From Candidatus Woesebacteria bacterium (lineage in GTDB: Bacteria > Patescibacteriota > Microgenomatia > UBA8517): a DNA stretch of 64,000 nucleotides. The stretch spans positions 542,963 to 606,962 of the forward strand of contig CP055307.1 in NCBI GenBank assembly GCA_013374835.1. The letters run 5' to 3'. The notes beneath the pieces are model-generated. The model worked only from the letters and a program-made list of their open reading frames with translations, searched no databases and was not told the origin of the DNA. Positions 1 through 64,000 of this stretch are shown piece after piece. A program made the position numbers and the translations under genes. Every line of letters starts with the position of its first letter. The first letter of the stretch is position 1.

Positions 1-551
1 GAGGGGAGTGGATTATTTATGTAGATGCAGACGAGAGGGTAACAAAAGAGCTTAGAAGAGAAATACAAAATGTTATTCGGGGGAATACTGATTATAATTT
101 TTATGCTATTCCTCGTGAGAATATTATTTTTGGAAAAGTTTTTAAGCATGGTGGTTTTTGGCCCGATTATGTAAAGAGGCTATTTAGAAAAAAAAAGCTG
201 AAAAAATGGCAAGGTGAGCTTCATGAAGAGCCTCTGGTCGAGGGAGGCATGGGGTATTTAAAGTCGCCCCTTAGGCATCTAAAGCATGAATCATTAAGAG
301 AGATGGTTGAGAAGACTAATATGTGGAGCGAGATTGAGGCAGATTTAATGTATAAAGCCGGTCATCCCAAAATGAACATTATCCGTTTTATGAGTGCGAT
401 GATCCGTGAGTTTTGGCATAGAATGATCAGGGGTATGGCTTTTCTGGATGGGCCTGAGGGCATCATTATGGCAGTTTATCAAGTTTATAGTAGATTTATA
501 AGTTACGCAAAGCTTTGGGAAAGGCAGGAAAATGAAAGCTTGTATCGTTAA
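1..551 (+). CDS. Glycosyltransferase family 2, 5'-truncated at the window edge. Same subfamily as the CDS at 21005-21868.
   Basis: In-frame translation from nt 3 reads GEWIIYVDADERVTKELRREI...FGKVFKHGGFWPDYVKRL and continues into ORF 249..551. It contains the DxD-type VDADE motif. The tail resembles the 21005 protein (LDADERL...GGAYPDGVIRLVKRG). Stop TAA at 549-551. Confidence 0.7.
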   Translation, partial: GEWIIYVDADERVTKELRREIQNVIRGNTDYNFYAIPRENIIFGKVFKHGGFWPDYVKRLFRKKKLKKWQGELHEEPLVEGGMGYLKSPLRHLKHESLREMVEKTNMWSEIEADLMYKAGHPKMNIIRFMSAMIREFWHRMIRGMAFLDGPEGIIMAVYQVYSRFISYAKLWERQENESLYR

Positions 552-1563
552 CCCATATCTTGACAGCCTTGGAGGTGGAGAGCGTTATAGTATGAGTTTT
601 GCTCAAGTTTTATCTGAGATGGGGTTTAATGTAGATGTTCAATGGAATGATCAATCAATTCTTGAAAAATTGCGTAAAAGATTTGGTCTTAAACTTAAAA
701 ATATTAGAATAGTCCCTGATGTAAAGAGAGGGGACGGATATGATGTTTGTTTTTGGCTTTCGGACGGAAGTATCCCGCTTTTGAGATCAAGAAATAATAT
801 TATTCATTTTCAGTTTCCTTTTAAAGGGGTAGCGGGTGGTAGTTTAATTAATAAAATGAAGCTTTTTCGTATAAAACATGTTGTTTGCAACTCTTTTTTC
901 ACAAAAAGTTTTATTGATAGAGAGTTTAAAATAGAGAGTAAGGTTATTTATCCTCCTGTAGATACAGTATCTTTTAGACCGAGCAGAAAAAAGAAGGATG
1001 TTATTTTTTATGTCGGACGGTTCTCTCTTCTTACCCAAAATAAAGCTCAGGGCGAGCTTGTCGATGCGTTTATTAGATTTCATAAAAGATATGGGACATC
1101 TTTTAGGTTGGTTTTAGCAGGAGGAGTCGAGGTGGGTTCGAAAAAATTTTTGAGAGATTTGAAAAAAAAAGCAGATGGTTACCCAGTGACTTTTTTGGAG
1201 AGTCCGGATTTTTCCGAAATAGTTAATCTATATAAAGAATCTAAAATTTTTTGGTCTGCAAGCGGATATGGTGTCGATCCTGTTTCTGAACCAATGAGGG
1301 TTGAGCATTTTGGAATTACAACTGTTGAAGCAATGAGCTCGGGATCGGTACCTTTTTGTTTTGATGCTGGTGGAAATTCTGAAATTATCAAAGATGGAAA
1401 AACAGGATTTTTGTGGAAGAAAAAGAGCGAACTTATTGAAAAAACTATGATGATAATTACGGATAAGAAACTATATAATAGGGTTTCTAGGGCTGCCCAA
1501 AAGGAAAGTGAAAGATATAGCTATGAAGTCTTTAGTAAGAAAGTTGCCAAACTTTTGGTTTAA
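532..1563 (+). CDS. Glycosyltransferase family 4 (GT-B, retaining)
   Basis: C-terminal EX7E-type motif EHFGITTVEAMSSGSVPFCFDAGGNSEIIKDGKTGFL is typical of GT4. 343 aa. Confidence 0.8.
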   Translation: MKACIVNPYLDSLGGGERYSMSFAQVLSEMGFNVDVQWNDQSILEKLRKRFGLKLKNIRIVPDVKRGDGYDVCFWLSDGSIPLLRSRNNIIHFQFPFKGVAGGSLINKMKLFRIKHVVCNSFFTKSFIDREFKIESKVIYPPVDTVSFRPSRKKKDVIFYVGRFSLLTQNKAQGELVDAFIRFHKRYGTSFRLVLAGGVEVGSKKFLRDLKKKADGYPVTFLESPDFSEIVNLYKESKIFWSASGYGVDPVSEPMRVEHFGITTVEAMSSGSVPFCFDAGGNSEIIKDGKTGFLWKKKSELIEKTMMIITDKKLYNRVSRAAQKESERYSYEVFSKKVAKLLV

Positions 1564-3880
1564 GTATTGGCCTTTTTTGATAGCGCTGTTATTGCCGTTT
1601 ATTTTTTTTTGGAAATATTTTTTTCTTTCACTTTATCCTTTTCCCGGGGATTTTGTAACGGGGGTTTACTATCCATGGCTTGATTATAAATGGGGCTTTC
1701 CTGCGGGTGTTCCGGTCAAAAATCCGATTTTGGCAGACATTCCTTCGTATATTTATCCGATGCAGGTGCTTGCGGCAAATTTATTAAAAAAAGGCCAGCT
1801 TCCTTTGTGGAATCCGCATATACTAGGCGGCCTTCCTCTATTGGCAAATTTTCAATCGGCGGCTTTTTCTCCGACCTTATTTTTGTATTTTTTGTTTGAT
1901 GATATAAACGCTTGGAGCCTTCAGGTGTTTTTCCAGCATGTTTTGGTGATTGCCTTCACATATCTTTTTATCAGAGAGATAGGAATTTCAAAATTGGCAT
2001 CGGTTTTTGGATCGGTGTTTTTTGCTTTTTGTGGATACAGTTTGATTTGGTCACAATGGAACGGGCATACGCTTGCTGTTTCTTTTATTCCGCTTTTACT
2101 TTTTTTTGAATATAGATGGTTTAGGGGGGGTGGCGTAGCAAATTTGGGCGGCGGGGCTATTGCCTTTTTATTGCAGGTTGTTTCCGGGTATCCGCAATCT
2201 ATTTTATATACGGGGATTGTTAGTTTGGTGTTATGGATTTTTGTTAGTAAAGGGAGGTGCTTTTGGAAAAGGTCTTTCGCCTGGGGGGCTTTTATGCTTT
2301 TGGGGTTTGGCTTATCTGCATTCCAACTTTTACCTGGAATTGAACTTTTTTACCATTCCCAGTGGACTTATGAAACGCATCCTTTTGAATGGGCCTTTTT
2401 GCCTTGGTCAAAGATTATTACTTTTATTGCTCCGGATTATTTCGGCAATCATTCAACAGGAAATTATTGGGGACCACAAGACTATACTTCAAATACCGGC
2501 TATGTTGGAATAGTTGTATTTGTTTTAGCCACTTCTTCGTTTTTTAATAAGGCATTTTATAAGCAGAGGATGTATCTATTTTCATTTACAATTTTAGTTT
2601 TATCATTGGTGCTTTCTTTTGCGACGCCTTTATCGATTTTTTTATGGAAAAAGGGGGTGTTTGGGATGAGCGCTGCTTCGGCGCATCGGGCGCTTGTTGT
2701 TTCGAATTTTGGATTTTGTCTTTGTGCCTCATATGCAATTGATTATTATAGAAAAAATTTACATTATTTAAGCTGGGGGTTTGTATCTACTTTCGCGCTT
2801 TTGTTTGGATTTGTTTTGGGTAGTATTTATCTTTATTATCATTTTGACGATTTTCATTTTCGGATTGCTTTGAGAAACCTTGTTTTACCATTTTTTATTT
2901 ATTTTATTTTTTTTGTAGGATACAACTTGTTTAGGAGGCATAAAAGCGCTGTTTTGATTTTGATTTTCTTTTTAGGCGTATTTGAATTATTTAGATTCGG
3001 ATGGAAGTTTACTTCTTTTTCTAAAAGAGAGCTAATATATCCGGATACCCCTGTAATTACCTTTTTGAAAGAACAGGATAAACCATTTCGCATGCTCGCT
3101 GTTGACACGATGCCCGTTAATTTTCAGATGGCTTATGGTTTTGAGACGATCGGGGGCTATGAGACTATGAGACCGATGTTTATGTCAAAACTTATCGCCT
3201 TTATTAATTCCGAAAATCTTAAGGCAAGCCCTGCGAGTCGTTATGGGATTATTGATAATGAAACGTCGAGGATTTTAGATTTGGTTAATACAAAGTATTT
3301 TCTTGTATTGAAAGAAAATGGAGAAATTCCTGTCAAGTTTATGGGAAATCGATTTGAGAGTGTTTTTGAAGACAGATCAACCGCGATTTTGGAAAACAAA
3401 GACTCTCTTCCTCGGGCTTTTATGGTTTATGATTGGGAAGTAGTGGAAGATGGAAATGTTTTGACGGGTCTTTTACAGCAAGATTTCCGAGATAAGATTT
3501 ATCTTGATAAAAAAGTATATTTAAATTTGGCTAAATTTTCTACGAGGCAGAGTGTTTCCTATCTTTATTATGATTACCAAAGAAGTATTCTTGATGTAGA
3601 TACCGGCTCGGCGGGGATACTTTTTATATCAGATTCTTATTACCCGGGATGGAAGGCTTATGTTGACGGAGTTGAGACAGAGATAATAAGAGCTAATTAT
3701 GCTTTTCGTGCAATACCGATTGAACATGGAAGGCATACGGTAGAATTTGTATACAAACCGCAATCCTTTTTTTTGGGCGTATGGGTAAGTTTCTTGTCCG
3801 CCGGTTTAATTATTATTTCCCTTTTGACTTACAAGGCAATTGGAATGACAGATAAATTGAAGCTATACTTTAAGAAGTAG
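1508..3880 (+). CDS. YfhO-family polytopic membrane glycosyltransferase-like protein
   Basis: 790 aa with many TM helices. N-terminal loop LPLWNPHILGGLPLLAN and C-terminal beta-rich tail YYPGWKAYVDGVETEIIRANYAFRAIPIEHGRHTVEFVYKP followed by a final TM helix, as in the YfhO family. The start is uncertain: it overlaps the upstream gene by 56 nt, and an ATG at 1523 is an alternative. Confidence 0.6.
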   Translation: MKDIAMKSLVRKLPNFWFKYWPFLIALLLPFIFFWKYFFLSLYPFPGDFVTGVYYPWLDYKWGFPAGVPVKNPILADIPSYIYPMQVLAANLLKKGQLPLWNPHILGGLPLLANFQSAAFSPTLFLYFLFDDINAWSLQVFFQHVLVIAFTYLFIREIGISKLASVFGSVFFAFCGYSLIWSQWNGHTLAVSFIPLLLFFEYRWFRGGGVANLGGGAIAFLLQVVSGYPQSILYTGIVSLVLWIFVSKGRCFWKRSFAWGAFMLLGFGLSAFQLLPGIELFYHSQWTYETHPFEWAFLPWSKIITFIAPDYFGNHSTGNYWGPQDYTSNTGYVGIVVFVLATSSFFNKAFYKQRMYLFSFTILVLSLVLSFATPLSIFLWKKGVFGMSAASAHRALVVSNFGFCLCASYAIDYYRKNLHYLSWGFVSTFALLFGFVLGSIYLYYHFDDFHFRIALRNLVLPFFIYFIFFVGYNLFRRHKSAVLILIFFLGVFELFRFGWKFTSFSKRELIYPDTPVITFLKEQDKPFRMLAVDTMPVNFQMAYGFETIGGYETMRPMFMSKLIAFINSENLKASPASRYGIIDNETSRILDLVNTKYFLVLKENGEIPVKFMGNRFESVFEDRSTAILENKDSLPRAFMVYDWEVVEDGNVLTGLLQQDFRDKIYLDKKVYLNLAKFSTRQSVSYLYYDYQRSILDVDTGSAGILFISDSYYPGWKAYVDGVETEIIRANYAFRAIPIEHGRHTVEFVYKPQSFFLGVWVSFLSAGLIIISLLTYKAIGMTDKLKLYFKK

Positions 3881-5425
3881 ATGTTTGAAAAAAGAGATTT
3901 ATTAATACTAGGTTTTATTTTTTTGTTGGCATATATTTTGCGTGTTATTTTTTTACCATCTAATGCTTTGACATTCGGATATGACCAGGCGAGAGATGCT
4001 TTTGTTGTTCGAGAAATAATTTCGGGAGATTTTAAGATTTTGGGACCGCCTGCTTCAGCACCGGGGCTTTATCATGGGGTATTATATTATTACTATCTTG
4101 TATTTCCCTATTTACTGGGTGCAAATCCAGTTTACGCTGCTTATTGGAATAGTTTGTTTAACGCCTCGGTAGTTTTTTTGGTTTATATACTTACCTATTT
4201 ATTTGTTGGAAAAAAAGGTCCGTCTTTTCTGGCAGCCTTTTTGTTTGCCGTTTCGTTTGAAGCAACGCAATATGCAAATTGGCTTTCTAATCCGACTATT
4301 GGGGTTGTAAGCGTTCCTTTAATTTATTTAGGGCTTTGGATATGGATTAACGATTTCAAGCATAAAAAAGATAAAAGAACTTATTGGGGACCATTTTTAA
4401 CGGCAGTTGGTTTTGGTATATCAATACAAGCTGAAGTTTTTCTTTTATACCATGGGTTTGTTATTGTTTTTTGGCTTTTTGTATCAAGATCGAAAGTTTC
4501 ACTTCGCGAATTTTTATTGTTTTTAACGATTCTTTTTGTTGTTTTATCGACAATGATACTTTCAGAGTTTAAATTCGGATTTAGAGGTGTCATCGGTATT
4601 TTGAGTCTTTTTACGAATGGCGAGTCTTTAAAGTTTGCGAAGAGTTTTGGGGATATTTTGGTTCTTTATTTAAATCAGCTGGGGAGACTTTTTTCTTATT
4701 CAACATATCCCGGGAATGTTTGGTGGGGTGCGGGGTTTGTTTTTACACTTCTTTTATATAGTATTTGGACTTTAAATAAAAAACGCGTTGGATGGAAAGC
4801 TTTTTTGTCGAGTATTTTATTAAGCCATGCAAGTGTTGTTTCGGTTGGTGGACAGAGCACACCCTTTCTGCTTGTAGGTCTTGCTCCTTTTGTTTCTATA
4901 ATTGTTGCAATTTTTTTGTATAAATGGTGGACGGGAGGATATGAAAAAATTGCTTTTTTTGTTTTTTTGATTGTTGTTTTCGGGAATTTGTCTATGATTT
5001 TTCGGGAAAATAAAAAAGGGCAAACTGTTTTTGCGATCCAGCAAGACATGGTGCTTTCGAAGCAGATTCCTCTTATTGATTATACTTACAATGAAGCAAA
5101 TGGAGCTAGTTTTTCAATAAATACGTTGACTAGTCCTTTGTGGGTGAATACTGTGTGGTCTTACTTATATAATTTTTATGGTAAGCCCCGATACGGATAT
5201 CTGCCTTTTTGGCACGGGAGAGACCAGGTTGGAAGACTTGGCAATAATCTTGAAAAGACTTCTCAGGATGTTAATTTGTTTTATCTTATTTTGGAGCCAA
5301 TGGAGGGAATACCAAAAAGATTTTTAGATGAGACTGTGGCGGGTGAGGATGTTGTTTCAAGAATAATTGAAAGTAGGAATTTTGGTAGTATTGTGGTTCA
5401 GAAAAGAGAGGCTTTAAATGAATAG
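3881..5425 (+). CDS. Polytopic membrane protein, GT-C-like (PMT_2/ArnT-related) candidate
   Basis: 514 aa with at least 10 predicted TM helices. An N-terminal loop motif FGYDQARDAFVVREIISGDFKILGPP sits at the position of the DE-loop in the ArnT-like paralogs. Confidence 0.45.
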   Translation: MFEKRDLLILGFIFLLAYILRVIFLPSNALTFGYDQARDAFVVREIISGDFKILGPPASAPGLYHGVLYYYYLVFPYLLGANPVYAAYWNSLFNASVVFLVYILTYLFVGKKGPSFLAAFLFAVSFEATQYANWLSNPTIGVVSVPLIYLGLWIWINDFKHKKDKRTYWGPFLTAVGFGISIQAEVFLLYHGFVIVFWLFVSRSKVSLREFLLFLTILFVVLSTMILSEFKFGFRGVIGILSLFTNGESLKFAKSFGDILVLYLNQLGRLFSYSTYPGNVWWGAGFVFTLLLYSIWTLNKKRVGWKAFLSSILLSHASVVSVGGQSTPFLLVGLAPFVSIIVAIFLYKWWTGGYEKIAFFVFLIVVFGNLSMIFRENKKGQTVFAIQQDMVLSKQIPLIDYTYNEANGASFSINTLTSPLWVNTVWSYLYNFYGKPRYGYLPFWHGRDQVGRLGNNLEKTSQDVNLFYLILEPMEGIPKRFLDETVAGEDVVSRIIESRNFGSIVVQKREALNE

Positions 5426-6068
5426 TTCTATAAAATCCGCAGCAAATCTCCATGAGAAGGTGCCACCCGATTGGTATTATAGGTCTATTAAAAGAAATTT
5501 GTTGCAAAGAATTTGGCACAAAAAAAGATTTAGTGTAGTATCTTCGCTTTCAGAAAAAAGTGACCGTGTCCTTGATATTGGCTGTGCTGACGGTGTTTTT
5601 ACTAATGAAATTGCAAAATCTACTCATGCTCAGGAGGTTGTCGGGATAGATGTGTTGAAAGATTCTATTAATTGGGCTCGTAGTAAATGGCGAGGAAAAA
5701 ATATGAAGTTTTTGGTTGGGAATGCGCATAAACTTAATTTTAGAGCTAATTATTTTGATGCGGTTTATGCGCTTGAAGTTATGGAGCATGTTAGCAATCC
5801 GTATAAAGTAATATCTGAGATTAAAAGGGTTTTGAAAAGGGGTGGGTGTGTAATAATTTTGGTTCCGACCGATAGTACGCTTTTTCGTATAGTATGGTTT
5901 TTTTTGACAAATTATTGGTGGGCTAGGATTTGGGATGGTTGTCATATTCAATCTTTTAGTAAAAAAAATAGATTATCGAAACACCTTAAGGATGCTGGAT
6001 TTGCGATAGAGATTGACAAGACTTTTTGGTTTGGGATGCTTAATGTGGTTAAAGCAAGAAAAAAATGA
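5418..6068 (+). CDS. Class I SAM-dependent methyltransferase
   Basis: Motif I VLDIGCADGVF, an acidic post-I residue (VGIDV), and ...YFDAVYALEVMEHVSNP...LKRGGCVII are typical of Methyltransf_11/25. Confidence 0.85.
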   Translation: MNSSIKSAANLHEKVPPDWYYRSIKRNLLQRIWHKKRFSVVSSLSEKSDRVLDIGCADGVFTNEIAKSTHAQEVVGIDVLKDSINWARSKWRGKNMKFLVGNAHKLNFRANYFDAVYALEVMEHVSNPYKVISEIKRVLKRGGCVIILVPTDSTLFRIVWFFLTNYWWARIWDGCHIQSFSKKNRLSKHLKDAGFAIEIDKTFWFGMLNVVKARKK

Positions 6069-6973: not shown

Positions 6974-6975
6974 AT

Positions 6976-10855: not shown

Positions 10856-10856
10856 G

Positions 10857-21868: not shown

Positions 21869-21894
21869 ACTTCTTGCTAGAATTAATAATAGTT

Positions 21895-45858: not shown

Positions 45859-45859
45859 C

Positions 45860-46072
45860 ATGACGGATATTTGGAATCGTTGGAAAAAATTGACTGAGAA
45901 AATTGGGAGAGTTCAGGCTGTAATTATTTTTTCAGCGCTTTATTTTATCTTGATTACGCCTGTCGGATTTTTAACAGCACGTGTGTTTGATTATTTAAAT
46001 TTGAGAAAGTTGCCAAGATGGGTTGATTTTGAGGGAAGAGAAGATAGTGTAACTGAGCTTAGAAAGCAGTAG
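45860..46072 (+). CDS. SxtJ-like small membrane protein candidate
   Basis: 70 aa, immediately upstream of the carbamoyltransferase and 1 nt after the previous microprotein. One TM helix (VQAVIIFSALYFILITPVGFL). Confidence 0.4.
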   Translation: MTDIWNRWKKLTEKIGRVQAVIIFSALYFILITPVGFLTARVFDYLNLRKLPRWVDFEGREDSVTELRKQ

Positions 46073-58242: not shown

Positions 58243-58243
58243 T

Positions 58244-59050
58244 ATGGGAAAATGTATTCTTTGTGGCAGCAATAAATTTGAAGATTTATATGATAGCCTT
58301 GAGCGGTGTACGAATTGTTTTTTGGTGAGGACGAGAAAGAAAAATGAGGTTAACTATAAAGCTTATTACAGGGACTTTGTATATCGAGAGTATGAGAGTT
58401 ATTTCAAAAACATTTACATGAAGCGATTTAAGCTTATCTCGAGATATGTAAAAAGTCCTGGGCGAGTGCTTGAGATTGGGTCTTCTGTTGGAATCTTGCT
58501 TGGTATTTTTAAGGATAAAGGGTGGGAGGTTTGGGGAGTTGAGCCTTCGAAGAGCATAAAGTACTCAAAAAAAAATGCGCATAAGCTTTTAAAAAGTACG
58601 TTTGAGAAATGCCGACTGCCTGAGTCTTATTTTGATGTGGTTGTTCTTAACCATACTCTTGAGCATATGGAAAATCCGAGGGAGACTTTAAAAAAGGTAA
58701 ATATAATTTTAAAGAGGGGCGGAATTGTTTTTATTGATGTACCGAATTTTGGAAGTTTATCGTCTAGAATAAGCAGAGAATATTGGAAATATTTGCTAAC
58801 TAATGAACATACATATCATTTTACGAAAAGTACTCTTACAAAGATTTTAAGAAAGTGCAACTTTGAAATTGTATATTCAAGGAGCTGGTCTGGGATATTC
58901 GATTCGGATAACGTCTTAAAAAGATTTTGGTTTAATTTTAGTAATTTTAAGTTAAATTTTTTTGTCGATATCTTAGATGCTTTCGGAAATATTGTTTCAA
59001 CTATTTTAGATAGAGGAACAAACTTGGTAATAATCGGCAAGAAAAAATGA
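58244..59050 (+). CDS. SAM-dependent methyltransferase with an N-terminal Cys4 zinc-ribbon
   Basis: CILCGSNKF...CTNCFLV, then VLEIGSSVGILL, FDVVVLNHTLEHMENP and LKRGGIVFIDVPN. Confidence 0.85.
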   Translation: MGKCILCGSNKFEDLYDSLERCTNCFLVRTRKKNEVNYKAYYRDFVYREYESYFKNIYMKRFKLISRYVKSPGRVLEIGSSVGILLGIFKDKGWEVWGVEPSKSIKYSKKNAHKLLKSTFEKCRLPESYFDVVVLNHTLEHMENPRETLKKVNIILKRGGIVFIDVPNFGSLSSRISREYWKYLLTNEHTYHFTKSTLTKILRKCNFEIVYSRSWSGIFDSDNVLKRFWFNFSNFKLNFFVDILDAFGNIVSTILDRGTNLVIIGKKK

Positions 59051-60354
59051 AGATTTACCTCGGTTTTTTGATGTTTTTGCATATATTTATTCTCAGGCTT
59101 CTTTCTTTTACAGCTTGGCCTGAGATGTTTTCTTTTCCTTACTTAATTTCGCAAGGATATTCTTTATATAAAGATGTAGTTTATGTTTATACGCCCATCT
59201 TGCCGTATTTGCTTTTGGGTGTGTTTAGAATATTTGGTTATAAGATTTTGGTGCTTAAGGCGTTTACCTGGATTTTAATTCTTCTAAATGATTTTTTGAT
59301 TTATAAAATCACACACCGCCTTACGAAAAAAGAGTATTTGGGTTTTTTGGCTACCGGAATTTATGTTTTTTTGCAGCCTTTTTGGGAGGGAAACATGCTT
59401 TGGTTTGATTTGGCTTATGTAACGCCCGTTCTTTTATCTTTTTATTTTTTGATAAATAGAAAGTATTTTATAGCCGGTTTGGCTATTTCAATAGCTTTTC
59501 TTACAAAGCAGATTGCTGTGGTATTTGCGGCTTTGTTTTTGATGCAGATTTTTTTGAGCAGGAAACGTGTTGATGAATCGGTATATCGATACGCTGTTGG
59601 CGTTTTGTTTCCAGTTGGGATATTTGCTTTTTATCTTATTTTAAGCGGGGATTTGGAGTGGTTTTTTAACTGGACATTTTACTATCCAATGAAATATTGG
59701 AGTTTGTTCCCGGGGTATATTGACTTTAATTTATCTAAATTGGACTTTTTTGAGATTTTGTGCTTACTTTTGCCTTTTTTGGCTGGGCTATATAAGATTC
59801 GAGGAAAGCCTGTGGCAGGATTTTTGGCGGTGGCGCTTTTAATGTCCTTTTTGGCTTTTTATCCGCGTTTTTCATTTTTTCATCTTCAAATGTTTGTAGC
59901 ATTTTTTGCGATTTATTCAGCTTATATTGTTAAATATGTAGGCCGTAGATATGTTTTTTTGCTGTCAATTTTTTTAATATTTTCCGTTGTCGGGCAATTT
60001 AGAGGGGGTAAGGCTTCTTTCCGTGGGGATAGATTTTGGGAAAAGGAAACTCTTTTATTAGCCGAGAAGCTGCCTCAAAAGAGCCATCTATATTATTTGA
60101 ATTTGCCGTCGCATTATTATTTTTTGACAAAAAGTTTGCCCCCTAAACCTTGGGTTGATAATTTTGGTTGGTATTGGGAGGTGCCTGGTTTTCAACAAAA
60201 AACGCTTGAACGCTGGAGTGTTAATCCGCCGAAATATATTGTTTGGCAAAAAGGAGCCTATGAGCCAAAGGTTGTTACATCGTGGATTAAAGCAAACTAT
60301 AATGTTAATAAATTGGTGGAGAATATAATCATATGGCAGAAAAAAGAAAATTAA
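59047..60354 (+). CDS. Polytopic membrane protein, GT-C/DUF2029-like candidate
   Basis: 435 aa with about 11 TM helices and a soluble C-terminal tail. Confidence 0.35.
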   Translation: MKIYLGFLMFLHIFILRLLSFTAWPEMFSFPYLISQGYSLYKDVVYVYTPILPYLLLGVFRIFGYKILVLKAFTWILILLNDFLIYKITHRLTKKEYLGFLATGIYVFLQPFWEGNMLWFDLAYVTPVLLSFYFLINRKYFIAGLAISIAFLTKQIAVVFAALFLMQIFLSRKRVDESVYRYAVGVLFPVGIFAFYLILSGDLEWFFNWTFYYPMKYWSLFPGYIDFNLSKLDFFEILCLLLPFLAGLYKIRGKPVAGFLAVALLMSFLAFYPRFSFFHLQMFVAFFAIYSAYIVKYVGRRYVFLLSIFLIFSVVGQFRGGKASFRGDRFWEKETLLLAEKLPQKSHLYYLNLPSHYYFLTKSLPPKPWVDNFGWYWEVPGFQQKTLERWSVNPPKYIVWQKGAYEPKVVTSWIKANYNVNKLVENIIIWQKKEN

Positions 60355-61376
60355 AATTAGCTTTTTTAAGCTATTACAGCGGCTTGGTTAATAGGGGAGT
60401 AGAGACATTTGTGCATGAACTTGCTAATGCTTTAAATCGTTTGGGGCATGATGTGATTGTCTTCCAAGGCGGCGGTAAATTAAAAAGATGTAAATACAAA
60501 ACTAAAACAATAAAAATAAAAGGAGATCGGGGTTTGAAAAGCACTATTCGTCGATTTACTTTATATTCTCTTAAAGATATGGATCGGGATGTTGATATTA
60601 TTTATCCGACTAATGGGGGGTGGCAATCTGTTTTGTGTCGTCTTTGGACGTGGAAAAACGGCAAGAAACTGGTTATTTCGGGACAATCTGGTTTGGGGCG
60701 AGATGACAAGATTAACTTGCTTACTTTCCCTGATTGTTTTGTGGCGTTGACAAAAAATCAGAAAAAATGGGCTAAAAAGCAAAATAGGTTTGTCAGAATA
60801 AAAGTTATTCCAAACGGAGTTGACTTACGAAAATTTGATAAATCTATTAAACCTATTGATTTAAATTTGCCTAGGCCTGTTGTTTTAAATGTTTCTGCCT
60901 TTGTTGATTGGAAACGCCAAGAGCTTTTAGTCAGAGCTGTAGCTAAACTTGGAGTGGGATCTTTGCTTTTGGTTGGAAGCGGGCCGGAAAAGGAAAAGTT
61001 AAATATGCTTTGTGAGAAGTTAATGCCAAACAGGTATAAAATTACATCTTATCCATATCACAAAATGCCAGCTGTTTACCCCGCGGCAGACGTATTTAGC
61101 TTCCCAACTGTTTCTTGGGAATCTTTTGGGATTGTTATGCTCGAGGCTATGGCTTCCGGCCTTCCTATAGTTGCTACCAATGATCCGATTCGTGCCGAAA
61201 TTATAGGTAGGGCGGGGATTTTGGTTGACCCAACAAATACAGATGCTTATGTTCAAGCGTTGCGGACAGCGTTGGACAAAAACTGGGGTGATCTGCCCCG
61301 CAAGCAGGCAGAAAAATATAGCTGGGAAAAAATTGCCCTTAAATATGAGGATTTATTTTATTTGATTAAAAAATGA
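60333..61376 (+). CDS. Glycosyltransferase family 4
   Basis: WESFGIVMLEAMASGLPIVATNDPIRAEIIGRAGILVD. Confidence 0.8.
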   Translation: MAEKRKLKLAFLSYYSGLVNRGVETFVHELANALNRLGHDVIVFQGGGKLKRCKYKTKTIKIKGDRGLKSTIRRFTLYSLKDMDRDVDIIYPTNGGWQSVLCRLWTWKNGKKLVISGQSGLGRDDKINLLTFPDCFVALTKNQKKWAKKQNRFVRIKVIPNGVDLRKFDKSIKPIDLNLPRPVVLNVSAFVDWKRQELLVRAVAKLGVGSLLLVGSGPEKEKLNMLCEKLMPNRYKITSYPYHKMPAVYPAADVFSFPTVSWESFGIVMLEAMASGLPIVATNDPIRAEIIGRAGILVDPTNTDAYVQALRTALDKNWGDLPRKQAEKYSWEKIALKYEDLFYLIKK

Positions 61377-62209
61377 AAGTAAGTGTGGTGATAGCGGTTT
61401 ATAACGAAGAGGATAAAATTGATAGGTGCCTTAAGTCGTTAGCAAAACAAAGGTTTGATAATTTTGAGGTTATCGTTGTTGACGATGGATCTACTGATGA
61501 AACTTCACAAGTTTTGTCAAATTTTCAATCTTCAATTTTCAATTTACTAATATACAAGAAGAAACATCAGGGGCCGGGGGCAGCCAGGAATTTGGGAGCA
61601 AGCAGAGCTAGAGGAGAGGTTTTAGTCTTTGTCGATGCGGATATGACTTTTGATCCCCGGTTTATTAAAAATCTTACTCGCCCTATTTTTGAAAAACGGA
61701 CGGCTGGTACAAATACTTCGAGTGAGTTTGTTGGTAATTGGGATAACGTATGGGCAAGGTGCTGGAATTATAACGAGGGTATTTCTAGTAATGTCAGATA
61801 CAAAAAGAATGTAGCTAGCGAGCGGGTGTTTAGGGCTATAAGAAAGAAAGAATTTTTAAGCGTTGGGGGATTTGATCCCGGCGGATATACGGATGACTAT
61901 TCTTTGAGCCGAAAACTCGGTTTTTTACCTTTGGTAATCGATGATGCGATAATTTATCATCAGAATCCTGAGAAACTTACCGAAGTGTTTTTCCACGCAA
62001 AGTGGGTTTCAAAAAGAAGTTATAAGTATGGTGTTTTGGGTATTATTTATACGTTTTTGAAGCTAAATTTATTGATGAGTTTTGCTGTCGGTGCTTTTAA
62101 GGCTGTAAAATATAAAGAAGCACGGTTTTTGGTATTTAAGATTGTTTATGATTTCGGGGCGATTTTGGGCCTTGTCGAATATTTTATTTTTAAAAAAGGA
62201 TATAAATGA
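61373..62209 (+). CDS. Glycosyltransferase family 2
   Basis: VSVVIAVYNEEDKIDRCLKSL, VIVVDDGSTDET, VFVDADMTF. Confidence 0.85.
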   Translation: MKVSVVIAVYNEEDKIDRCLKSLAKQRFDNFEVIVVDDGSTDETSQVLSNFQSSIFNLLIYKKKHQGPGAARNLGASRARGEVLVFVDADMTFDPRFIKNLTRPIFEKRTAGTNTSSEFVGNWDNVWARCWNYNEGISSNVRYKKNVASERVFRAIRKKEFLSVGGFDPGGYTDDYSLSRKLGFLPLVIDDAIIYHQNPEKLTEVFFHAKWVSKRSYKYGVLGIIYTFLKLNLLMSFAVGAFKAVKYKEARFLVFKIVYDFGAILGLVEYFIFKKGYK

Positions 62210-63627
62210 AGAGGGTAAAACCGATTTCAATAATTTTAATTTTGGCGTGTTTAGTAAGACTGGTAGGTATTAACGAGTCTTTTTGGTTGGATGAGGCTAC
62301 TGTAGGCGTTCTGGTGAGAGAGATGAGTTTTTCGCAAATACTTGGTATTTTTGCTTTAGGCGATTTTCATCCACCGCTTTATTATTTGATAGTAAAAGTT
62401 TGGAGTAGTATATTGGGGAGCTCTGAGTTTTCTTTGAGGCTTGTTTCTCTGATTTTTGGTGTGGGGAGCGTTTATCTTGTTTATTTGATAGGTAAAACAG
62501 TAAAAAGTCGATCTTTTGGTAATTTGGCTGCTTTTATTTTTTCAATTAATCCGCTTCATGTTTATTATTCCCGTGAAGCGAGGATGTATGCGATGTCGAC
62601 ATTTTTTGTAACACTTTGTTTTTATAGTTTTATAAAATTACTTAGAAAAAACACCCCTTTTAAATATTGGTATATTTTTTCTTTTTCTTTGGCACTTTTA
62701 TTTTTGACTGATTATATAAATTTATTTGTATTACCGGTTTTTTGGATATTCGTCGCTTATAAAAAAAGAAATGAGCGCGAATTTGTTTTGAAATTTGTTT
62801 TTTCTCATACCGCTTTATTATTGGCGGGGTTTGCAATTTTTCCAATTTTTAAAGAGCAATTTGTATCAGGCTTGGCTGTAAAGGAGAAGTCTTTTGAGTG
62901 GTGGAGTGTACTTGGCACAGTTAATTTTAAAAATGTATTTCTTCTTCCGATAAAGATGGTTATTGGAAGGATTGGATTTGAAAACAGATATGTTTATGGG
63001 ACCATTTTGGCTTTGTTTTTCTCATTTTATGGTTTTTTGTTTTATGGGATTATCAAAAATTACAAAAAATATTTGATATTTTTTTTATGGCTTGTTATTC
63101 CTATTTTGCTGGGTATTTTAATCGGATATTTTATACCCATTTTTGTATACTTTCGTTTTGTCTATATTGTTCCTGCTTTTTGTTTGTTGTCTGCTTATGC
63201 AATTTTTGAATTTAATGAGAAGTATTTTTTACCATTGCTGGGTGGAATTTTACTGATAAGCCTTTTTTCGAATTTTTACTATGTTGATAATGATAGATTT
63301 CACCGTGAAGATTGGCGAAATTTGTCGCGTTTTTTGTCTGAGAAGAAAGATTCAGAAGATAAGGATATACAGCTTTTATTTCCTTCTAATTCACAAAGAG
63401 AAGGTCTTGTTTATTACAACGCGGTTTATAAAGATTTGGGACATGAAGATTTTGGCAGCTTGAAAGAAGGGGAGATTTATCTTGTACGCTATGTCTGGGA
63501 TGTGTTTGATCCGGCAGATCTTTTACGCAAAAAACTTGAGGAAGTAGGTTTTATAAAGGTTAATGAGCACAATTTTAACGGCGTTATTTTGTTTGAGTAT
63601 GAAAAGAGTAATGAGAGTTATAATTGA
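62206..63627 (+). CDS. ArnT/GT39 (PMT_2)-family GT-C glycosyltransferase
   Basis: ESFWLDEATVGVLVREMS...FHPPLYYLIVKVW...FSLRLVSLIFGVGSVYLVY...INPLHVYYSREARMYAM is a typical PMT_2 N-terminal signature. 473 aa. Confidence 0.6.
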   Translation: MKRVKPISIILILACLVRLVGINESFWLDEATVGVLVREMSFSQILGIFALGDFHPPLYYLIVKVWSSILGSSEFSLRLVSLIFGVGSVYLVYLIGKTVKSRSFGNLAAFIFSINPLHVYYSREARMYAMSTFFVTLCFYSFIKLLRKNTPFKYWYIFSFSLALLFLTDYINLFVLPVFWIFVAYKKRNEREFVLKFVFSHTALLLAGFAIFPIFKEQFVSGLAVKEKSFEWWSVLGTVNFKNVFLLPIKMVIGRIGFENRYVYGTILALFFSFYGFLFYGIIKNYKKYLIFFLWLVIPILLGILIGYFIPIFVYFRFVYIVPAFCLLSAYAIFEFNEKYFLPLLGGILLISLFSNFYYVDNDRFHREDWRNLSRFLSEKKDSEDKDIQLLFPSNSQREGLVYYNAVYKDLGHEDFGSLKEGEIYLVRYVWDVFDPADLLRKKLEEVGFIKVNEHNFNGVILFEYEKSNESYN

Positions 63628-64000
63628 TACTTCCCAAATTGTTTATGGTACAGGCGTTTCGGTTTATACTGAAAACCTAGTTCGTAATTTGCTGGTATTG
63701 GATAAAAAAAGCCGATATGTACTTTTTGGTGGTTCTTTGCGGCAAAAGGGGGAATTAACAGACATACTTTCTGAATTTTCACAAAAAAATGTAGATATTA
63801 AGATTTATCCTTTTGCCCCGAGTATGCTTGATTTGATGTGGAATAGACTTTCTGTTTTGCCTATAGAACTGTTTTGCGGTAAAGCAGATGTTTACCATTC
63901 ATCTGATTGGGTCCAAGCTCCTTTTGGAGGTTTTAAGGTAACAACTGTACATGATTTATCACCCTTTCTTTTTCCAGATGAAACCCCCAAAAAAATCGTT
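63611..64000 (+). CDS. Glycosyltransferase family 4, 3'-truncated at the window edge
   Basis: The ATG at 63611 overlaps the upstream stop. MRVIIDTSQIVYGTGVSVYTENLVRNL...DVYHSSDWVQAPFGGFKVTTVHDLSPFLFP is a GT4 N-terminal domain of the Glyco_trans_4-like type. Confidence 0.65.
   Translation, partial: MRVIIDTSQIVYGTGVSVYTENLVRNLLVLDKKSRYVLFGGSLRQKGELTDILSEFSQKNVDIKIYPFAPSMLDLMWNRLSVLPIELFCGKADVYHSSDWVQAPFGGFKVTTVHDLSPFLFPDETPKKIV

Follow-up and report, generated by a model that had tools for sequence, protein, structure and literature searches.

Mycobacterial LM, LAM and arabinan assembly, like LLO and GPI assembly in the ER lumen, follows a logic of synthase, flippase and GT-C glycosyltransferase, which is also the logic of the gene island described here. 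The described three-component system combines a synthase, a MATE-family flippase and a GT-C enzyme (PMC11127046), and in streptococci GtrB with the YfhO-type PgtC2, or PgfS with PgfM1, glycosylate proteins outside the membrane (PMC11092751). The island shares its logic with the three-component systems (PMC11127046) and with the streptococcal GtrB/PgtC2 and Pgf systems (PMC11092751), so the initial annotation, which saw no described counterpart as a whole, was too strong.

The 64,000-nucleotide window, the whole stretch of DNA analysed here, covers the middle two-thirds of an island for surface-glycan assembly that spans at least 94 kb in a Microgenomatia (CPR/Patescibacteria) bacterium. The island makes up about one tenth of the host genome (probably ~0.9 Mb) and is not bounded by the window; its left edge is some 20 kb upstream of the window. 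At a coding density of 97.9%, the window encodes 50 complete ORFs (100 aa or longer), along with three small ORFs and two genes that are cut off at its ends (Table 1). Families were called using Pfam and NCBIfam, local profile comparison (hhalign), homologue annotation and two AlphaFold models (g15, g20). By family, profile or structure comparison, 47 of the 50 complete ORFs were assigned to glycan assembly or tailoring, close to the first estimate (about 46 of roughly 52 genes). GT-C membrane glycosyltransferases account for 19 genes and 35.3 kb (55% of the window), more than first counted, and the GT-C-centred design proposed earlier stands. They are accompanied by two Polysacc_synt (MOP/Wzx-type) flippases (g21, g43), six SAM methyltransferases and single genes for a NodU-type carbamoyltransferase, a weak SGNH/GDSL-like protein, a classical SDR, a DUF5667 protein and a truncated GT-C remnant. 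The 13 GT2 genes and five GT4 genes, or six with the partial one at the 3' end, indicate substantial cytoplasmic assembly; so many GT2 and GT4 enzymes are untypical of a simple three-component decoration system.

The tight, one-strand packing first noticed was confirmed, with 45 of the 50 ORFs on the plus strand and 31 of the 49 junctions overlapping (13 of the ATGA type). These overlaps make long polycistronic units plausible; promoter and terminator scans of the window gave signals at chance level. Leading-strand bias offers an alternative reason for the co-orientation of the genes and fits the GC skew, which is constantly positive along the window.

Table 1 Features of the 64-kb window.
Feature	Position	Strand	Evidence
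GT2 gene, 3' part (full gene 258 aa, start upstream of window)	1..551	+	fragment weak PF00535; full-length product PF00535 on source contig
g02 GT4 (GT-B) glycosyltransferase	532..1563	+	Glycos_transf_1 E 1.3e-22
g03 YfhO-family GT-C: ~9 TM, large outside domain, C-terminal TM anchor	1508..3880	+	PF09586 E 4e-22; topology
g04 GT-C, PMT_2/ArnT type, no Pfam match	3881..5425	+	family profile vs array profile: hhalign 99.6%, E 4e-24, 386 columns
g05 SAM methyltransferase	5418..6068	+	Methyltransf_11 E 6e-23
g06 GT2	6065..6973	+	PF00535 E 3e-23
g07 GT2	6976..7788	+	PF00535 E 6e-24
g08 GT-C (PMT_2), DE motif	7746..9188	+	PF13231 E 2.6e-11; motif
g09 array-type ArnT-like GT-C paralogue	9170..10855	+	PMT_2/PMT; 28-31% full-length identity to g12-g16; orthologues head array in some relatives
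g10 GT-C (GT87/PMT_2-like), no Pfam match	10857..12164	+	family profile: hhalign 95.6% to array profile, 95.3% to g47 family
g11 truncated array-type GT-C remnant: middle TM segment only, no catalytic loop	12161..12748	+	hhalign 96.2% to array profile columns 221-419
g12 array GT-C paralogue, conserved core starts here	12748..14427	+	PMT_2; paralogy; DE motif
g13 array GT-C paralogue	14448..16079	+	PMT_2/PMT; positional orthologues in relatives
g14 array GT-C paralogue	16039..17769	+	PMT/PMT_2; positional orthologues
g15 array GT-C paralogue, ArnT-like fold	17750..19420	+	PMT_2 E 2.7e-14; ArnT 5EZM by sequence E 1e-4; AF2 model
g16 array GT-C paralogue	19417..21015	+	PMT_2; positional orthologues 42-57% identical in loci with clear orthology
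g17 core GT2	21005..21868	+	PF00535 E 9e-16; conserved position after array
g18 classical SDR (FabG/glucose-1-dehydrogenase-like)	21874..22644	+	adh_short_C2 E 4e-64; NF005559 228 bits vs cut-off 215
g19 core GT4	22645..23760	+	Glycos_transf_1 E 2.5e-27
g20 core GT-C, PIG-V/Gpi18/GT87-like, invariant NFDGEHY loop	23757..24905	+	homologues with PF04188, PF13231 or PF09594; AF2 model; invariant residues
g21 core MOP/Wzx-family flippase	24902..26155	+	Polysacc_synt_3 E 2e-17
g22 core Dol-P-Man-synthase-like GT2, candidate polyprenyl-P-sugar synthase	26142..26894	+	PF00535; PDB 5MLZ; weak PpgS/PgfS
g23 GT-C (weak PMT_2) fused to F5/8 type C (discoidin, sugar-binding) domain	26878..29298	+	PF00754 E 4e-11; PMT_2 E 1e-3
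g24 core GT4	29295..30422	+	Glycos_transf_1 E 1e-29
g25 SAM methyltransferase; true start probably near 30406	30247..31008	+	Methyltransf_11 E 1.5e-20; indel
g26 GT-C (PMT_2)	30998..32704	+	PF13231 E 6e-10
g27 ArnC/GtrB/PgfS-type polyprenyl-phosphate glycosyl synthase (GT2, C-terminal TM)	32706..33644	-	ArnC NF007986 E 4e-56, PgfS E 1e-41, full length; both below equivalog cut-offs
g28 GT2	33666..34490	+	PF00535 E 2e-25
g29 GT4	34487..35611	+	Glycos_transf_1 E 1e-21
g30 GT2	35614..36636	+	PF00535 E 1e-26
g31 AftD-like GT-C, 1055 aa: 9 TM, large outside domain, C-terminal TM	36614..39781	+	no own Pfam match; family PF11847; topology
g32 SAM methyltransferase	39746..40441	-	Methyltransf_23 E 5e-19
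g33 PgfS/ArnC/GtrB-type polyprenyl-phosphate glycosyl synthase, ~3 C-terminal TM	40441..41364	-	full-length PgfS E 1.2e-75, ArnC E 3e-50
g34 SAM methyltransferase	41431..42369	+	Methyltransf_11 E 6e-23
g35 SAM methyltransferase	42336..43091	+	Methyltransf_25 E 2e-8
g36 membrane GT2, ~4 TM	43143..44120	+	PF00535 E 5e-15
g37 GT-C, PMT_2 type, DE motif, no Pfam match	44117..45676	+	hhalign 93.9% to array profile; QDEL motif after TM1
Two small membrane ORFs (53 aa, 70 aa) immediately 5' of carbamoyltransferase g38	45697..46072	+	read from sequence; no family assigned
g38 NodU/CmcH-type O-carbamoyltransferase (tailoring)	46077..47780	+	Carbam_trans_N E 1e-83; Carbam_trans_C E 2e-66
g39 membrane-anchored SGNH/GDSL-like protein, weak assignment	47762..48967	-	Lipase_GDSL_2 E 5e-5, below cut-off
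g40 two fused GT-C modules (YfhO-like N half, PMT_2 C half), 1124 aa, ~16 TM	48922..52296	-	PF09586 E 2e-11 residues 534-613; PF13231 E 2e-10 residues 732-859
g41 small DUF5667 membrane protein, paired with g42	52316..52810	+	weak PF18915
g42 AftD-like GT-C, g31 paralogue	52957..55434	+	24% identity to g31, E 1e-6; same topology; family evidence
g43 second MOP/Wzx-family flippase	55419..56672	+	Polysacc_synt E 9e-24
g44 DPM1/AglJ/PpgS-like GT2, directly 3' of flippase g43	56669..57406	+	PF00535; AglJ E 3e-20, PpgS E 3e-14, Dol-P-hexose transferase E 3e-14, all below cut-offs
g45 GT2	57406..58242	+	PF00535 E 4e-8
g46 SAM methyltransferase	58244..59050	+	Methyltransf_23 E 1e-26
g47 GT-C (PMT_2/GT87-like)	59047..60354	+	homologues with PF13231 or PF09594; family profile vs array profile 93.8%
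g48 GT4	60333..61376	+	Glycos_transf_1 E 9e-26
g49 GT2	61373..62209	+	PF00535 E 4.5e-34
g50 GT-C (PMT_2), distant array-family member, DE motif	62206..63627	+	PF13231 E 1.4e-15; hhalign 99.1% to array
GT4 gene, 5' part (359 aa on source contig)	63611..64000	+	Glycos_transf_1 + Glyco_transf_4 on source contig

Structural models agreed with the GT-C calls. The top 34 PDB fold matches of the g20 AF2 model (pLDDT 88) were all GT-C proteins, and the g15 model (pLDDT 76) matched ArnT best (E 6.7e-8), followed by OSTs, ALG9/12, Pmt4 and AftA/B/D. Seven polytopic proteins unassigned by Pfam were considered as hidden Wzy polymerases; this was rejected, as all seven resolved as GT-C. Flippases, the negative controls in the hhalign profile comparison, scored 0.4-0.8%. 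Array paralogues within the window are about 30% identical to each other and carry a DE motif after TM1, with D40 invariant in the eight-sequence alignment A4; their Lys-rich N termini place this loop after TM1 outside. The g31 family is large (2428 representatives), and among 26 aligned members, including g31 and g42, PF11847 (GT-C_AftD) was matched by 8 (best E 1e-13) and DUF5667 was present in 13.

Feeding of these enzymes by Dpm1/GtrB-like synthases, as the initial annotation suggested, is supported by g27 and g33, which match ArnC and PgfS along their full length (NCBIfam), and by g22, whose best PDB sequence match is the archaeal Dol-P-Man synthase DPMS (5MLZ, E 5e-13), then ArnC and GtrB. 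The flippases g21 and g43 each lie directly upstream of one such synthase (g22 and g44, respectively), and we infer that they flip polyprenyl-P-monosaccharides. The SDR g18, once the sole nucleotide-sugar candidate, was rejected as an extended nucleotide-sugar SDR, being of the classical FabG/glucose-dehydrogenase type (NF005559).

The absences reported for the window held. No ORF in it matched Bac_transf, Glycos_transf_4 (WecA/MraY), Wzy_C, Wzz or ABC-transporter families, nor epimerase/dehydratase, DegT or nucleotidyltransferase families (Pfam/NCBIfam). PglC and WecA probes (used without a positive control) gave no matches in the window and detected no PGT near the core in the loci of 80 relatives; by Pfam, no PGT was found in the -20 to -10 kb region of a relative. 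The initial annotation had asked whether canonical genes flank the window: no PGT, ABC, Wzz or sugar-nucleotide gene was found from -20 kb to +9.6 kb around it, but a Wzy_C gene is present on the source contig, 3.9 kb downstream of the window's 3' end. Wzy_C is a ligase/polymerase/O-OTase family, and Polysacc_synt proteins usually flip Und-PP-oligosaccharides. This Wzy_C protein and the flippases g21 and g43, which are canonical Wzx-family proteins, suggest that at least one pathway in the island is Und-PP-linked and requires a PGT, presumably encoded elsewhere.

On balance, we lean towards a system in which the three components, polyprenyl-P-sugar synthase, flippase and GT-C, have been greatly expanded and which builds envelope glycans outside the membrane. 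A priming PGT would not be needed in cis, because such a system glycosylates an acceptor that is already outside. In the route that we infer, from donor and flippase cargo to order of action, acceptor and product, the GT2 synthases g22, g27, g33 and g44 (Dpm1/GtrB/ArnC/PgfS kind) would transfer single sugars from nucleotide sugars to polyprenyl phosphate at the inner membrane face, and the MOP flippases would bring these lipid-linked sugars, possibly also lipid-linked primers, to the outer face. There, the 19 GT-Cs, with predicted outward-facing acidic catalytic loops, would add sugars singly to a growing acceptor whose cytoplasmic part would be built by soluble GT4 and GT2 enzymes. The methyltransferases, the carbamoyltransferase and the SGNH-like enzyme may then tailor the product. 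Candidate acceptors are a GT4-primed membrane glycolipid or lipoglycan, a wall polymer and Ser/Thr-rich proteins.

The proposal of a lineage-specific system was borne out by the synteny comparison that the initial annotation had called for. The centre of the window (g12-g24, 12.7-30.4 kb) recurs with positional orthologues in most of the 80 Microgenomatia genomes compared, in the order ArnT-like GT-C array, GT2, SDR, GT4, PIG-V-like GT-C, MOP flippase, Dol-P-Man-synthase-like GT2 and GT4. A GT4 gene lies immediately 5' of the g20-family GT-C in 76 of the 80 loci, with an SDR just upstream of this pair in 20, and GT-C, flippase and GT2 are adjacent in 61. Among the 65 loci whose sequence reaches far enough upstream, 55 have three or more array GT-Cs there. 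The order g13-g14-g15-g16 recurs in relatives; in the closer ones, array orthologues are mostly 40-55% identical (g13 orthologues often 35-44%), with bit scores about double those of the next paralogue. Judging by orthology, this ordered array of non-redundant ArnT-like GT-C paralogues would most likely act sequentially or as a complex. None of the 80 loci has both a MOP flippase (65 loci) and a small DUF2304 membrane protein (13 loci), a pattern consistent with a donor-flippase function that could be taken over by a small protein. DUF5667 genes recur close to the core in relatives, and the junction 30387/30402, near the g25 start, is the site of an extra GT-C gene in one relative (indel).

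An NAD-dependent epimerase/dehydratase gene lies beside the core in 44 of the 80 loci, and tblastn with this epimerase found no counterpart in the window or in the 10 kb on either side of it. The lack of precursor genes, first read as a feature of the system, is a peculiarity of the present genome's arrangement. The core itself is an ancient module present across the whole class, and the rest of the island, including the two AftD-like GT-Cs and the double GT-C fusion, would be accessory modules of the same logic.

GT-C glycosyltransferases dominate the window, accounting for 19 genes and 35.3 kb, or 55% of its length. Eleven polytopic proteins (g03, g08, g09, g12-g16, g26, g40 and g50; window ORFs are numbered g02-g50, with g01 the GT2 gene cut by the window start) matched Pfam PMT_2, PMT or YfhO above the cut-off, and g23 gave a sub-threshold PMT_2 match (19.6 bits against a cut-off of 26.1). 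Seven further polytopic proteins had no Pfam match (g04, g10, g20, g31, g37, g42 and g47). All seven resolved as GT-C, which rules out hidden Wzy polymerases among them. The homologues of g20 (n = 801, 47-53% identical, from Woesebacteria and WWE3) carry Mannosyl_trans2/PIG-V, PMT_2 or GT87 domains, and those of g47 carry PMT_2 or GT87. The g31 protein and its paralogue g42 belong to a large family of 2428 cluster representatives; among 26 aligned members, a set that includes both, eight matched GT-C_AftD (PF11847, best E 1e-13) and one matched CBM_4_9. No Pfam match was found in g31 itself, the topology of which fits the AftD family. Alignment by hhalign to GT-C profiles built from the related loci gave 99.6% for g04, 95.6% for g10 and 93.9% for g37, with less than 1% for the two window flippases used as negative controls. 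These richer profiles were needed, single-sequence hhalign against the six-paralogue profile being too weak for g10, g37 and g47 (10-57%).

Structure models were made for two of the GT-C proteins only, g15 and g20. The first 34 Foldseek PDB matches of the g20 AlphaFold model (pLDDT 88.1) were all GT-C enzymes, as were the top 33 of the g15 model (pLDDT 76), led by ArnT (E 6.7e-8); ALG9, ALG12, ALG6, ALG3, GPI-MT-I, Pmt4 and the Pmt1-Pmt2 complex were among the fold matches of these models. For the array, the set of GT-C paralogues g09 and g12-g16, ArnT is the nearest solved relative both by sequence and by the fold of the g15 model. Oligosaccharyltransferases also rank high among the g15 fold matches, and that assignment was rejected for the array members because the WWDYG motif is absent; no WWDYG/WWD-type motif occurs in any of the 19 window GT-Cs. 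A DE motif follows TM1 in g08, g09, g12-g16, g37 and g50, and in the array its Asp (D40) is invariant across the eight-sequence alignment A4. The g20 family has an invariant D58 and a nearly invariant E60 in its NFDGEHY loop. A regular-expression search for a two-residue acidic motif found none in g03, g04, g10, g23, g40, g42 and g47, in which single Asp residues are present. The array proteins have Lys-rich N termini followed by one TM segment and then the DE motif, which places the catalytic loop outside the membrane. The co-location of Dpm1/GtrB/ArnC-like GT2 genes suggests that these GT-Cs would use a polyprenyl-phosphate-linked sugar as donor.

The g11 ORF, which lies between g10 and g12, is without the N-terminal catalytic loop and the C-terminal domain of the array GT-Cs and, judged from its sequence, looks like a decayed duplicate or truncated remnant of an array-type gene. 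The double GT-C fusion g40 is also found in a relative (1126 aa). In one divergent strain assembly two ORFs correspond to the single YfhO gene g03, owing to either a frameshift or an assembly error. The DUF5667 protein g41 is encoded just before the AftD-like g42. DUF5667 is present in 13 of the 26 aligned g31-family members (alignment A2), at least 14 related loci have separate DUF5667 genes close to the core, and it is possible that this protein is a partner or regulator of AftD-like GT-Cs.

Beside the GT-Cs, the Pfam and NCBIfam tally comprised GT2 (n = 13, including the 5' partial gene), GT4 (n = 5, plus a 3' partial gene), SAM methyltransferases (n = 6) and Polysacc_synt/MOP flippases (n = 2), giving 18-19 Leloir-type glycosyltransferases in the window. 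A NodU/CmcH-type carbamoyltransferase, a classical SDR and a weak SGNH-like protein are each present in single copy. Four of the GT2 proteins are candidate polyprenyl-P-sugar synthases. Two of them, g27 and g33, have C-terminal TM segments, as in GtrB-type polyprenyl-phosphate glycosyl synthases, and gave full-length matches to ArnC and PgfS: g27 matched ArnC at E 4e-56 (190 bits, cut-off 529) and PgfS at E 1e-41, and g33 matched PgfS at E 1e-75 (255 bits, equivalog cut-off 500) and ArnC at E 3e-50 (171 bits, cut-off 529); being below the equivalog cut-offs, these matches are family-level only. The best PDB relative of g22 is the archaeal Dol-P-Man synthase 5MLZ (E 5e-13), followed by ArnC and GtrB, and g44 resembles AglJ, PpgS and Dol-P-hexose transferases; these two are likewise below the equivalog cut-offs and matched at family level only. 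Each of the two flippases, g21 and g43 (Polysacc_synt/Polysacc_synt_3, Wzx family), lies directly upstream of a DPM-like GT2 gene (g22 and g44, respectively), and g42, g43 and g44 form an adjacent GT-C, flippase and GT2. The SDR, g18, which the initial annotation had named as the only candidate nucleotide-sugar gene, was rejected as an epimerase or dehydratase; it is a classical short SDR of the FabG/glucose-1-dehydrogenase type, not an extended SDR, and a DprE2-like role on a lipid-linked sugar would be speculation. An attempt to identify the acceptor through the two core GT4 proteins g19 and g24 was uninformative, their PDB sequence matches being generic (MshA, GlgA and weak PimA and PimB').

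Using the g20 family as the query, we scanned one genome per GTDB species and recovered 80 loci, of which the best is only 50-52% identical, and classified their ORFs with HMMs built from the window's own families. The taxa named for these loci are Woesebacteria, Daviesbacteria, Blackburnbacteria and Microgenomatus (Microgenomatia-type CPR). The initial annotation had looked to synteny with other Patescibacteria, and on comparison a core order does recur across the 80 Microgenomatia-type loci: a tandem array of PMT_2-type GT-Cs, a GT2, often an SDR, a GT4, the g20-family GT-C, a MOP flippase, a DPM-like GT2 and a GT4. The window genes g12-g24 follow this order. A GT4 gene adjoins the g20-family GT-C in 76 of the 80 loci, the GT-C-flippase-GT2 adjacency of g20-g21-g22 is kept in 61, and at least three array GT-Cs lie upstream in 55 of the 65 loci with sufficient upstream sequence. 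The title 'uncultured Gammaproteobacteria bacterium' is borne by dozens of public MAG records (L004, L006, L007 and many more) that contain this Microgenomatia-type cluster and were evidently mislabelled at deposition.

Within the window, the array paralogues are about 30% identical to each other. In the closer relatives there is a clear orthologue for each array position and the order g13-g14-g15-g16 is fixed; identities of these orthologues are mostly 40-55% (often 35-44% for g13), with bit scores about double those of the next-best paralogue. In more distant relatives (Daviesbacteria-type loci) the array is present, but one-to-one orthologues did not stand out. On sequence comparison the array members are not recent duplicates, and the ordered orthologues, with their twofold margin over the next paralogue, argue for distinct, non-redundant roles.

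The surroundings of the core vary. A MOP flippase lies by the g20-family GT-C in 65 loci and a DUF2304 small membrane protein in 13, never the two together, and in the 13 flippase-less loci the DUF2304 protein is encoded between two GT2 genes. This mutual exclusion suggests that DUF2304 substitutes for the flippase. The commonest gene foreign to the window is an NAD-dependent epimerase/dehydratase, found in 44 of the 80 loci, of which no counterpart was detected in the window or its flanks. Among the 25 commonest Pfam families listed for the unassigned locus ORFs were scattered UDP-glucose dehydrogenase, DegT and Epimerase_2 matches. In 11 relatives a flavoprotein with an Amino_oxidase match, absent from the window, is encoded between the array and the core GT2; a UDP-galactopyranose-mutase-like or DprE1-like function is possible for it. 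The locations of these and other features are collected in the table below.

Locations of the core, of individual ORFs and of features in the flanks and in related loci
Feature	Location	Strand	Description
g11	12161-12748	+	195 aa, 4 TM; matches array GT-C profile columns 221-419 (middle third)
Core, g12-g24	12.7-30.4 kb		Order recurring in related loci
g24/g25 junction	30387/30402		Clean junction in the window
53-aa ORF	45697-45858	+	Small, hydrophobic; directly upstream of carbamoyltransferase g38
70-aa ORF	45860-46072	+	Small, hydrophobic; directly upstream of carbamoyltransferase g38
g40	48922-52296	-	YfhO-like and PMT_2 GT-C fusion, 1124 aa, ~16 TM; single ORF
g41	52316-52810		DUF5667 small protein
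g42	52957-55434		AftD-like GT-C
Upstream flank	10 kb before window start		Three GT2, 565-aa membrane protein, third MOP flippase, PMT_2 gene, PTPS_related membrane proteins
Further upstream	Read in relative Ga0209164_1000061		PTPS_related, GT87, three PMT_2, GT2, GH15-like, then DHHA1-domain housekeeping gene
Downstream flank	9.6 kb after window end		Two GT4, hexapeptide acyltransferase, GT2, Wzy_C protein, PMT-type GT-C, further GT4 and GT2
Split g03 orthologue	L002 1822-3907 (Logan SRR6825879_2)		182-aa and 528-aa ORFs
GH15-like glycoside hydrolase	L084 4383-5501 (relative)		~16 kb upstream of window
Extra PMT_2 GT-C	L164 16605-18134 (collinear relative)		510 aa; between g24 and g25 orthologues
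Flavoprotein	L004, L006, L011, L015, L018, L019, L029, L038, L046, L054, L060		~447 aa

The initial annotation listed priming, polymerisation, export and precursor genes as missing, and for the window the list is correct: family scans of all window ORFs found no Pfam match to the families of priming phosphoglycosyltransferases (PGT; Bac_transf, Glycos_transf_4), Wzy_C, Wzz, an ABC exporter, GtrA, an LCP ligase or nucleotide-sugar enzymes. No Pfam match to a PGT was found in the window, its 10-kb flanks or the -20 to -10 kb region of the relative, and PglC and WecA probes, used without a positive control, gave no match in the window, the flanks or 1.4 Mb of the 80 related loci. ABC_tran and ABC2_membrane were likewise without a match in the window or flanks. 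The initial annotation also stated that canonical genes in the immediate flanks would make this an ordinary, if large, Wzy- or ABC-dependent cluster. That expectation applies to Wzy, since a Wzy_C gene starts 3.9 kb past the window end (E 1.6e-12; 47.9 bits, cut-off 31.7), although the Wzy_C family also takes in ligases and O-OTases. It does not extend to a PGT, ABC exporter, Wzz or sugar-nucleotide gene, none of which was found anywhere in the -20 to +9.6 kb region.

This Wzy_C gene bears on one alternative, in which the island is an ordinary, very large Wzx/Wzy heteropolysaccharide or O-oligosaccharyltransferase locus: a distal PGT would prime Und-P, the GT2 and GT4 enzymes would build Und-PP repeats, g21 and g43 would flip them, the Wzy_C protein would polymerise or ligate, and the GT-Cs would merely decorate side chains as in Gtr systems. 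The two Wzx-family flippases of the window and the third upstream, the number of Leloir-type enzymes and the hexapeptide acyltransferase downstream would all fit, and PGT genes, wecA for example, sometimes lie away from their clusters. However, the GT-Cs are the most numerous class and hold more than half of the bases, whereas in decoration systems each synthase is normally paired with a single GT-C. The core keeps four to six ordered GT-C orthologues, and neither Wzy_C (among the 25 commonest Pfam families listed) nor a PGT (with the PglC and WecA probes, without positive control) was detected within ~10 kb of it in the 80 genomes. The DUF2304 protein in the flippase's place in 13 genomes is hard to square with repeat-unit flipping, and both Wzz/PCP and LCP ligase are absent from the window and from the -20 to +9.6 kb region. 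We regard this alternative as unlikely; a Wzx/Wzy pathway with a distal PGT is possible for part of the island.

The island extends beyond the window on both sides. Its left border is taken, from the gene content of the relative Ga0209164_1000061, as the DHHA1-domain housekeeping gene ~20 kb before the window start, and the right border was not reached within 9.6 kb downstream. It spans at least 94 kb in the source genome and at least 105 kb in the relative, and holds ~28 GT-C-type genes when PTPS_related is counted as GT-C-like, which we assume from the Pfam clan. The GH15-like protein is the only hydrolase seen in it. The window proteins are also found on a 901,682-bp NCBI contig that is probably the whole chromosome, complete relatives being 0.82-0.92 Mb, so that the island makes up ~10% of a genome of ~0.9 Mb. 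Ga0209164_1000061 shares ~90% protein identity with the window (DNA 75-82% over one compared segment). An extra GT-C gene between the g24 and g25 orthologues of a relative collinear in the stretches fetched (75-82% DNA identity in this segment) indicates that GT-C gene content varies even among close relatives. In the window the g24 and g25 ORFs overlap by 176 nt, probably because the g25 start is over-called.

Given the extremely monotonous gene content and the metagenomic source, a third alternative is that an assembly or binning artefact, or a horizontal mosaic acquired recently, underlies the island in place of a native functional locus. Over the ~11 kb by which they overlap at each end, the window and a 193,888-bp Logan contig show 0 mismatches, in independent assemblies from different runs. 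Gene for gene, Ga0209164_1000061 is collinear with the window in the three fetched stretches (combined span of more than 100 kb on that relative's contig), and the core is conserved across the class. The G+C content (~35%; range 0.30-0.39) is uniform, and the GC skew is positive in every 2-kb bin of the window (1-64000), the cumulative skew climbing monotonically. Independent assemblies, collinear relatives and uniform composition thus exclude an artefact or recent transfer, which we consider extremely improbable.

The tight packing and strand bias described in the initial annotation were accurate. Coding sequence makes up 97.9% of the window, with 50 complete ORFs (at least 100 aa), two end-cut genes and three small ORFs; 45 of the 50 ORFs are on the + strand, and 31 of the 49 junctions overlap, 13 of them as 4-base ATGA overlaps. 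Given these overlaps, translational coupling and long transcripts are plausible. The uniformly positive GC skew places the whole island on one replichore, and the near-total co-orientation of the genes presumably matches the direction of replication; leading-strand bias could therefore be an alternative cause of co-orientation. Both GtrB-type synthases (g27 and g33) are among the five minus-strand genes, so at least those are separate transcription units. Scans of the window for promoter consensus sequences were at chance (52 against 56 ± 8 and 69 against 71 ± 8.5), terminator scans were counted as chance-level (25 against 18 ± 5 and 21 against 14 ± 3), and no tRNA gene or Rfam family match was found in the window. 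The sole large 'intergenic' gap (400 bp) is occupied by the 53-aa and 70-aa ORFs, which may resemble the DUF5989/SxtJ-like small membrane proteins that accompany carbamoyltransferases elsewhere.

We compared the island with known systems that rely on GT-C enzymes. In three-component systems (GtrA/GtrB/GtrC of Shigella and Salmonella phages; CsbB/GtcA/YfhO of Firmicutes; and the Citrobacter system of a polyprenyl-phosphoribose synthase, a MATE flippase and GT136, with a MATE-family protein instead of GtrA, PMC11127046), the polyprenyl-P-monosaccharide made by a GT2 is moved by a flippase, and its sugar is then transferred outside by a GT-C, a step that is PGT-free. The window likewise has four such GT2s, two of them right after a MOP flippase and beside GT-Cs, and includes a YfhO member. 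Unlike those systems, which have one GT-C per synthase and decorate the polymer of another pathway, it has 19 GT-Cs (~28 in the island) for four synthases, an ordered array of four to six paralogues kept across the class, and flippases of the Polysacc_synt type with the GtrA family absent. In the ArnC/ArnT modification of lipid A with aminoarabinose, the full-length ArnC matches of g27 and g33 and the closeness of the array to ArnT find their parallel, but both synthases fall below the ArnC equivalog cut-off, ArnA, ArnB, ArnD, ArnE and ArnF are absent from the window, and there are at least six paralogues here against a single transferase. To our knowledge, lipid A is not expected in Microgenomatia.

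The streptococcal pairs GtrB/PgtC2 and PgfS/PgfM1 carry out extracytoplasmic protein glycosylation (PMC11092751). With these and the wider PgfS/PgfM1/PgfE/PgfM2 system the window shares a GtrB/PgfS-type synthase, YfhO-type GT-Cs, outward catalytic loops and independence from a PGT, and the match of g33 to the PgfS model is full-length. Yet g33, at 255 bits against the PgfS cut-off of 500, is not an orthologue; the window is without a PgfE-like epimerase and without adhesin substrates nearby, and it has far more GT-Cs along with many Leloir enzymes and tailoring enzymes. A second alternative follows this precedent. The PMT_2/YfhO GT-Cs would be protein O-glycosyltransferases, as are actinobacterial Pmt, yeast PMT1-6 and streptococcal PgtC2/PgfM1, and the paralogues would serve different secreted, S-layer or pilin substrates or hetero-oligomerise, instead of building one glycan stepwise. 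The PMT/PMT_2 and YfhO assignments, the PMT-like DE motif, Pmt4 and the Pmt1-Pmt2 complex among the fold matches, the closeness of g33 to PgfS (PMC11092751) and a mechanism without need for a PGT speak for it, as do the pili and surface proteins that CPR cells need for attachment according to PMC11310336. Against it, among solved structures the array comes closest to ArnT, which glycosylates lipid, and not to a PMT; PMT and PMT_2 matches and the DE motif are present in the window GT-Cs, but Pfam detected no MIR domain in the window ORFs. AftD-, PIG-V- and GT87-like members are present, the known counterparts of which act on glycans or glycolipids. The many cytoplasmic glycosyltransferases and tailoring enzymes point to a complex glycan and not to a single sugar, and no obvious Ser/Thr-rich substrate gene lies in the window. 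We give general protein O-glycosylation a low probability.

Two further systems resemble the island in using many GT-Cs. Mycobacterial and corynebacterial LM/LAM and arabinogalactan are assembled by PimA/PimB' (GT4), Ppm1 (GT2) and the GT-Cs PimE, MptA/MptB/MptC, AftA-D and EmbA-C. Shared with the window are cytoplasmic GT4s acting on a lipid, a Dpm1-like synthase, many outside GT-Cs that elongate and branch, the absence of Wzy and Wzz, and AftD-like (g31, g42) and GT87/PIG-V-like (g20, g47, g10) GT-Cs. The window matches are at family or fold level only, however, and not sequence-level orthology; the window lacks the DprE1/DprE2 pair, the Emb-type CBM architecture, WecA, Glf and GlfT, and its genes form one island in a monoderm-like CPR bacterium of 0.9 Mb, whereas theirs are dispersed. 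In the eukaryotic ER lumen, LLO and GPI synthesis involves DPM1, ALG5 and distinct GT-Cs (ALG3/9/12/6/8/10, PIG-M/V/B/Z), each GT-C using Dol-P-Man or Dol-P-Glc to extend a flipped lipid-linked glycan by a single sugar. The island shares with these the serial, distinct GT-Cs, the PIG-V/Gpi18-like homologues of g20 and the ALG9, ALG12, ALG6, ALG3 and GPI-MT-I fold matches, but the window has no STT3/PglB-type oligosaccharyltransferase (no WWDYG). The likeness is one of design, and we claim no link of ancestry.

A class-wide reading, which we consider less likely than not, is that Microgenomatia (Woesebacteria, Daviesbacteria and relatives) have a class-conserved, PGT-independent route to a major envelope glycoconjugate, with polyprenyl-P-sugar donors and a glycolipid or lipoglycan acceptor primed by the two core GT4s. 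It would be a counterpart of ER-lumen LLO/GPI and mycobacterial LM/LAM assembly, expanded here to ~28 GT-C-type genes and ~10% of the chromosome. Gene families, folds, synteny, orthology and absences were observed, whereas the donors, acceptors, flippase cargo and order of action are our proposals. For the island itself, the logic that we tentatively favour is that of the three-component systems: a synthase would make the polyprenyl-P-sugar, a flippase would pass it on and a GT-C would transfer the sugar outside the membrane. Such systems require no PGT of their own, which would account for the failure to detect one next to the core in the relatives. The 19 GT-Cs would share the four synthases g22, g27, g33 and g44, and the ordered array would act in stepwise assembly; array order and this ratio bring the island closer to LM/LAM, arabinan and ER-lumen LLO/GPI assembly than to simple decoration. 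The two core GT4s and the GT2 could prime a glycolipid acceptor in the manner of PimA/PimB, and the methyltransferases, carbamoyltransferase and SGNH-like protein would tailor the product. With three flippases and four synthases, several glycan pathways are likely to run side by side.

All components belong to known families, and clear precedents exist for the mechanism. The system is not categorically new. Three features appear to be undescribed within the searchable literature, outside which most subscription journals fall: a Microgenomatia core with an ordered array of ancient GT-C paralogues; the density of GT-Cs, at 55% of 64 kb and ~28 genes in ~94 kb of a 0.9-Mb genome; and the lack of a detected priming enzyme beside the core in any relative examined. 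We know of no denser clustering of GT-C genes in any genome. The ~28 paralogues are a natural panel for the evolution of acceptor and linkage specificity in the GT-C fold, and the conserved core offers a testable handle, with a searchable gene order, groups of orthologues and candidate synthases open to assay in E. coli membranes, an approach already used for GtrB (PMC11092751).

CPR bacteria are episymbionts of very small size, mostly uncultured and with a reduced metabolism. PMC11310336 states in general terms that their genomes encode glycosyltransferases that modify the surface and that the surface is believed to serve attachment to hosts. The core bears on the question of what makes up the Microgenomatia envelope. 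The commitment of ~10% of a 0.9-Mb genome to the making of glycans, over half of that share being GT-C, implies a central place for an elaborate surface glycoconjugate in CPR biology. If the class-wide reading is true, the expansion would fit a surface glycan coat used by these episymbionts for host attachment or phage evasion.
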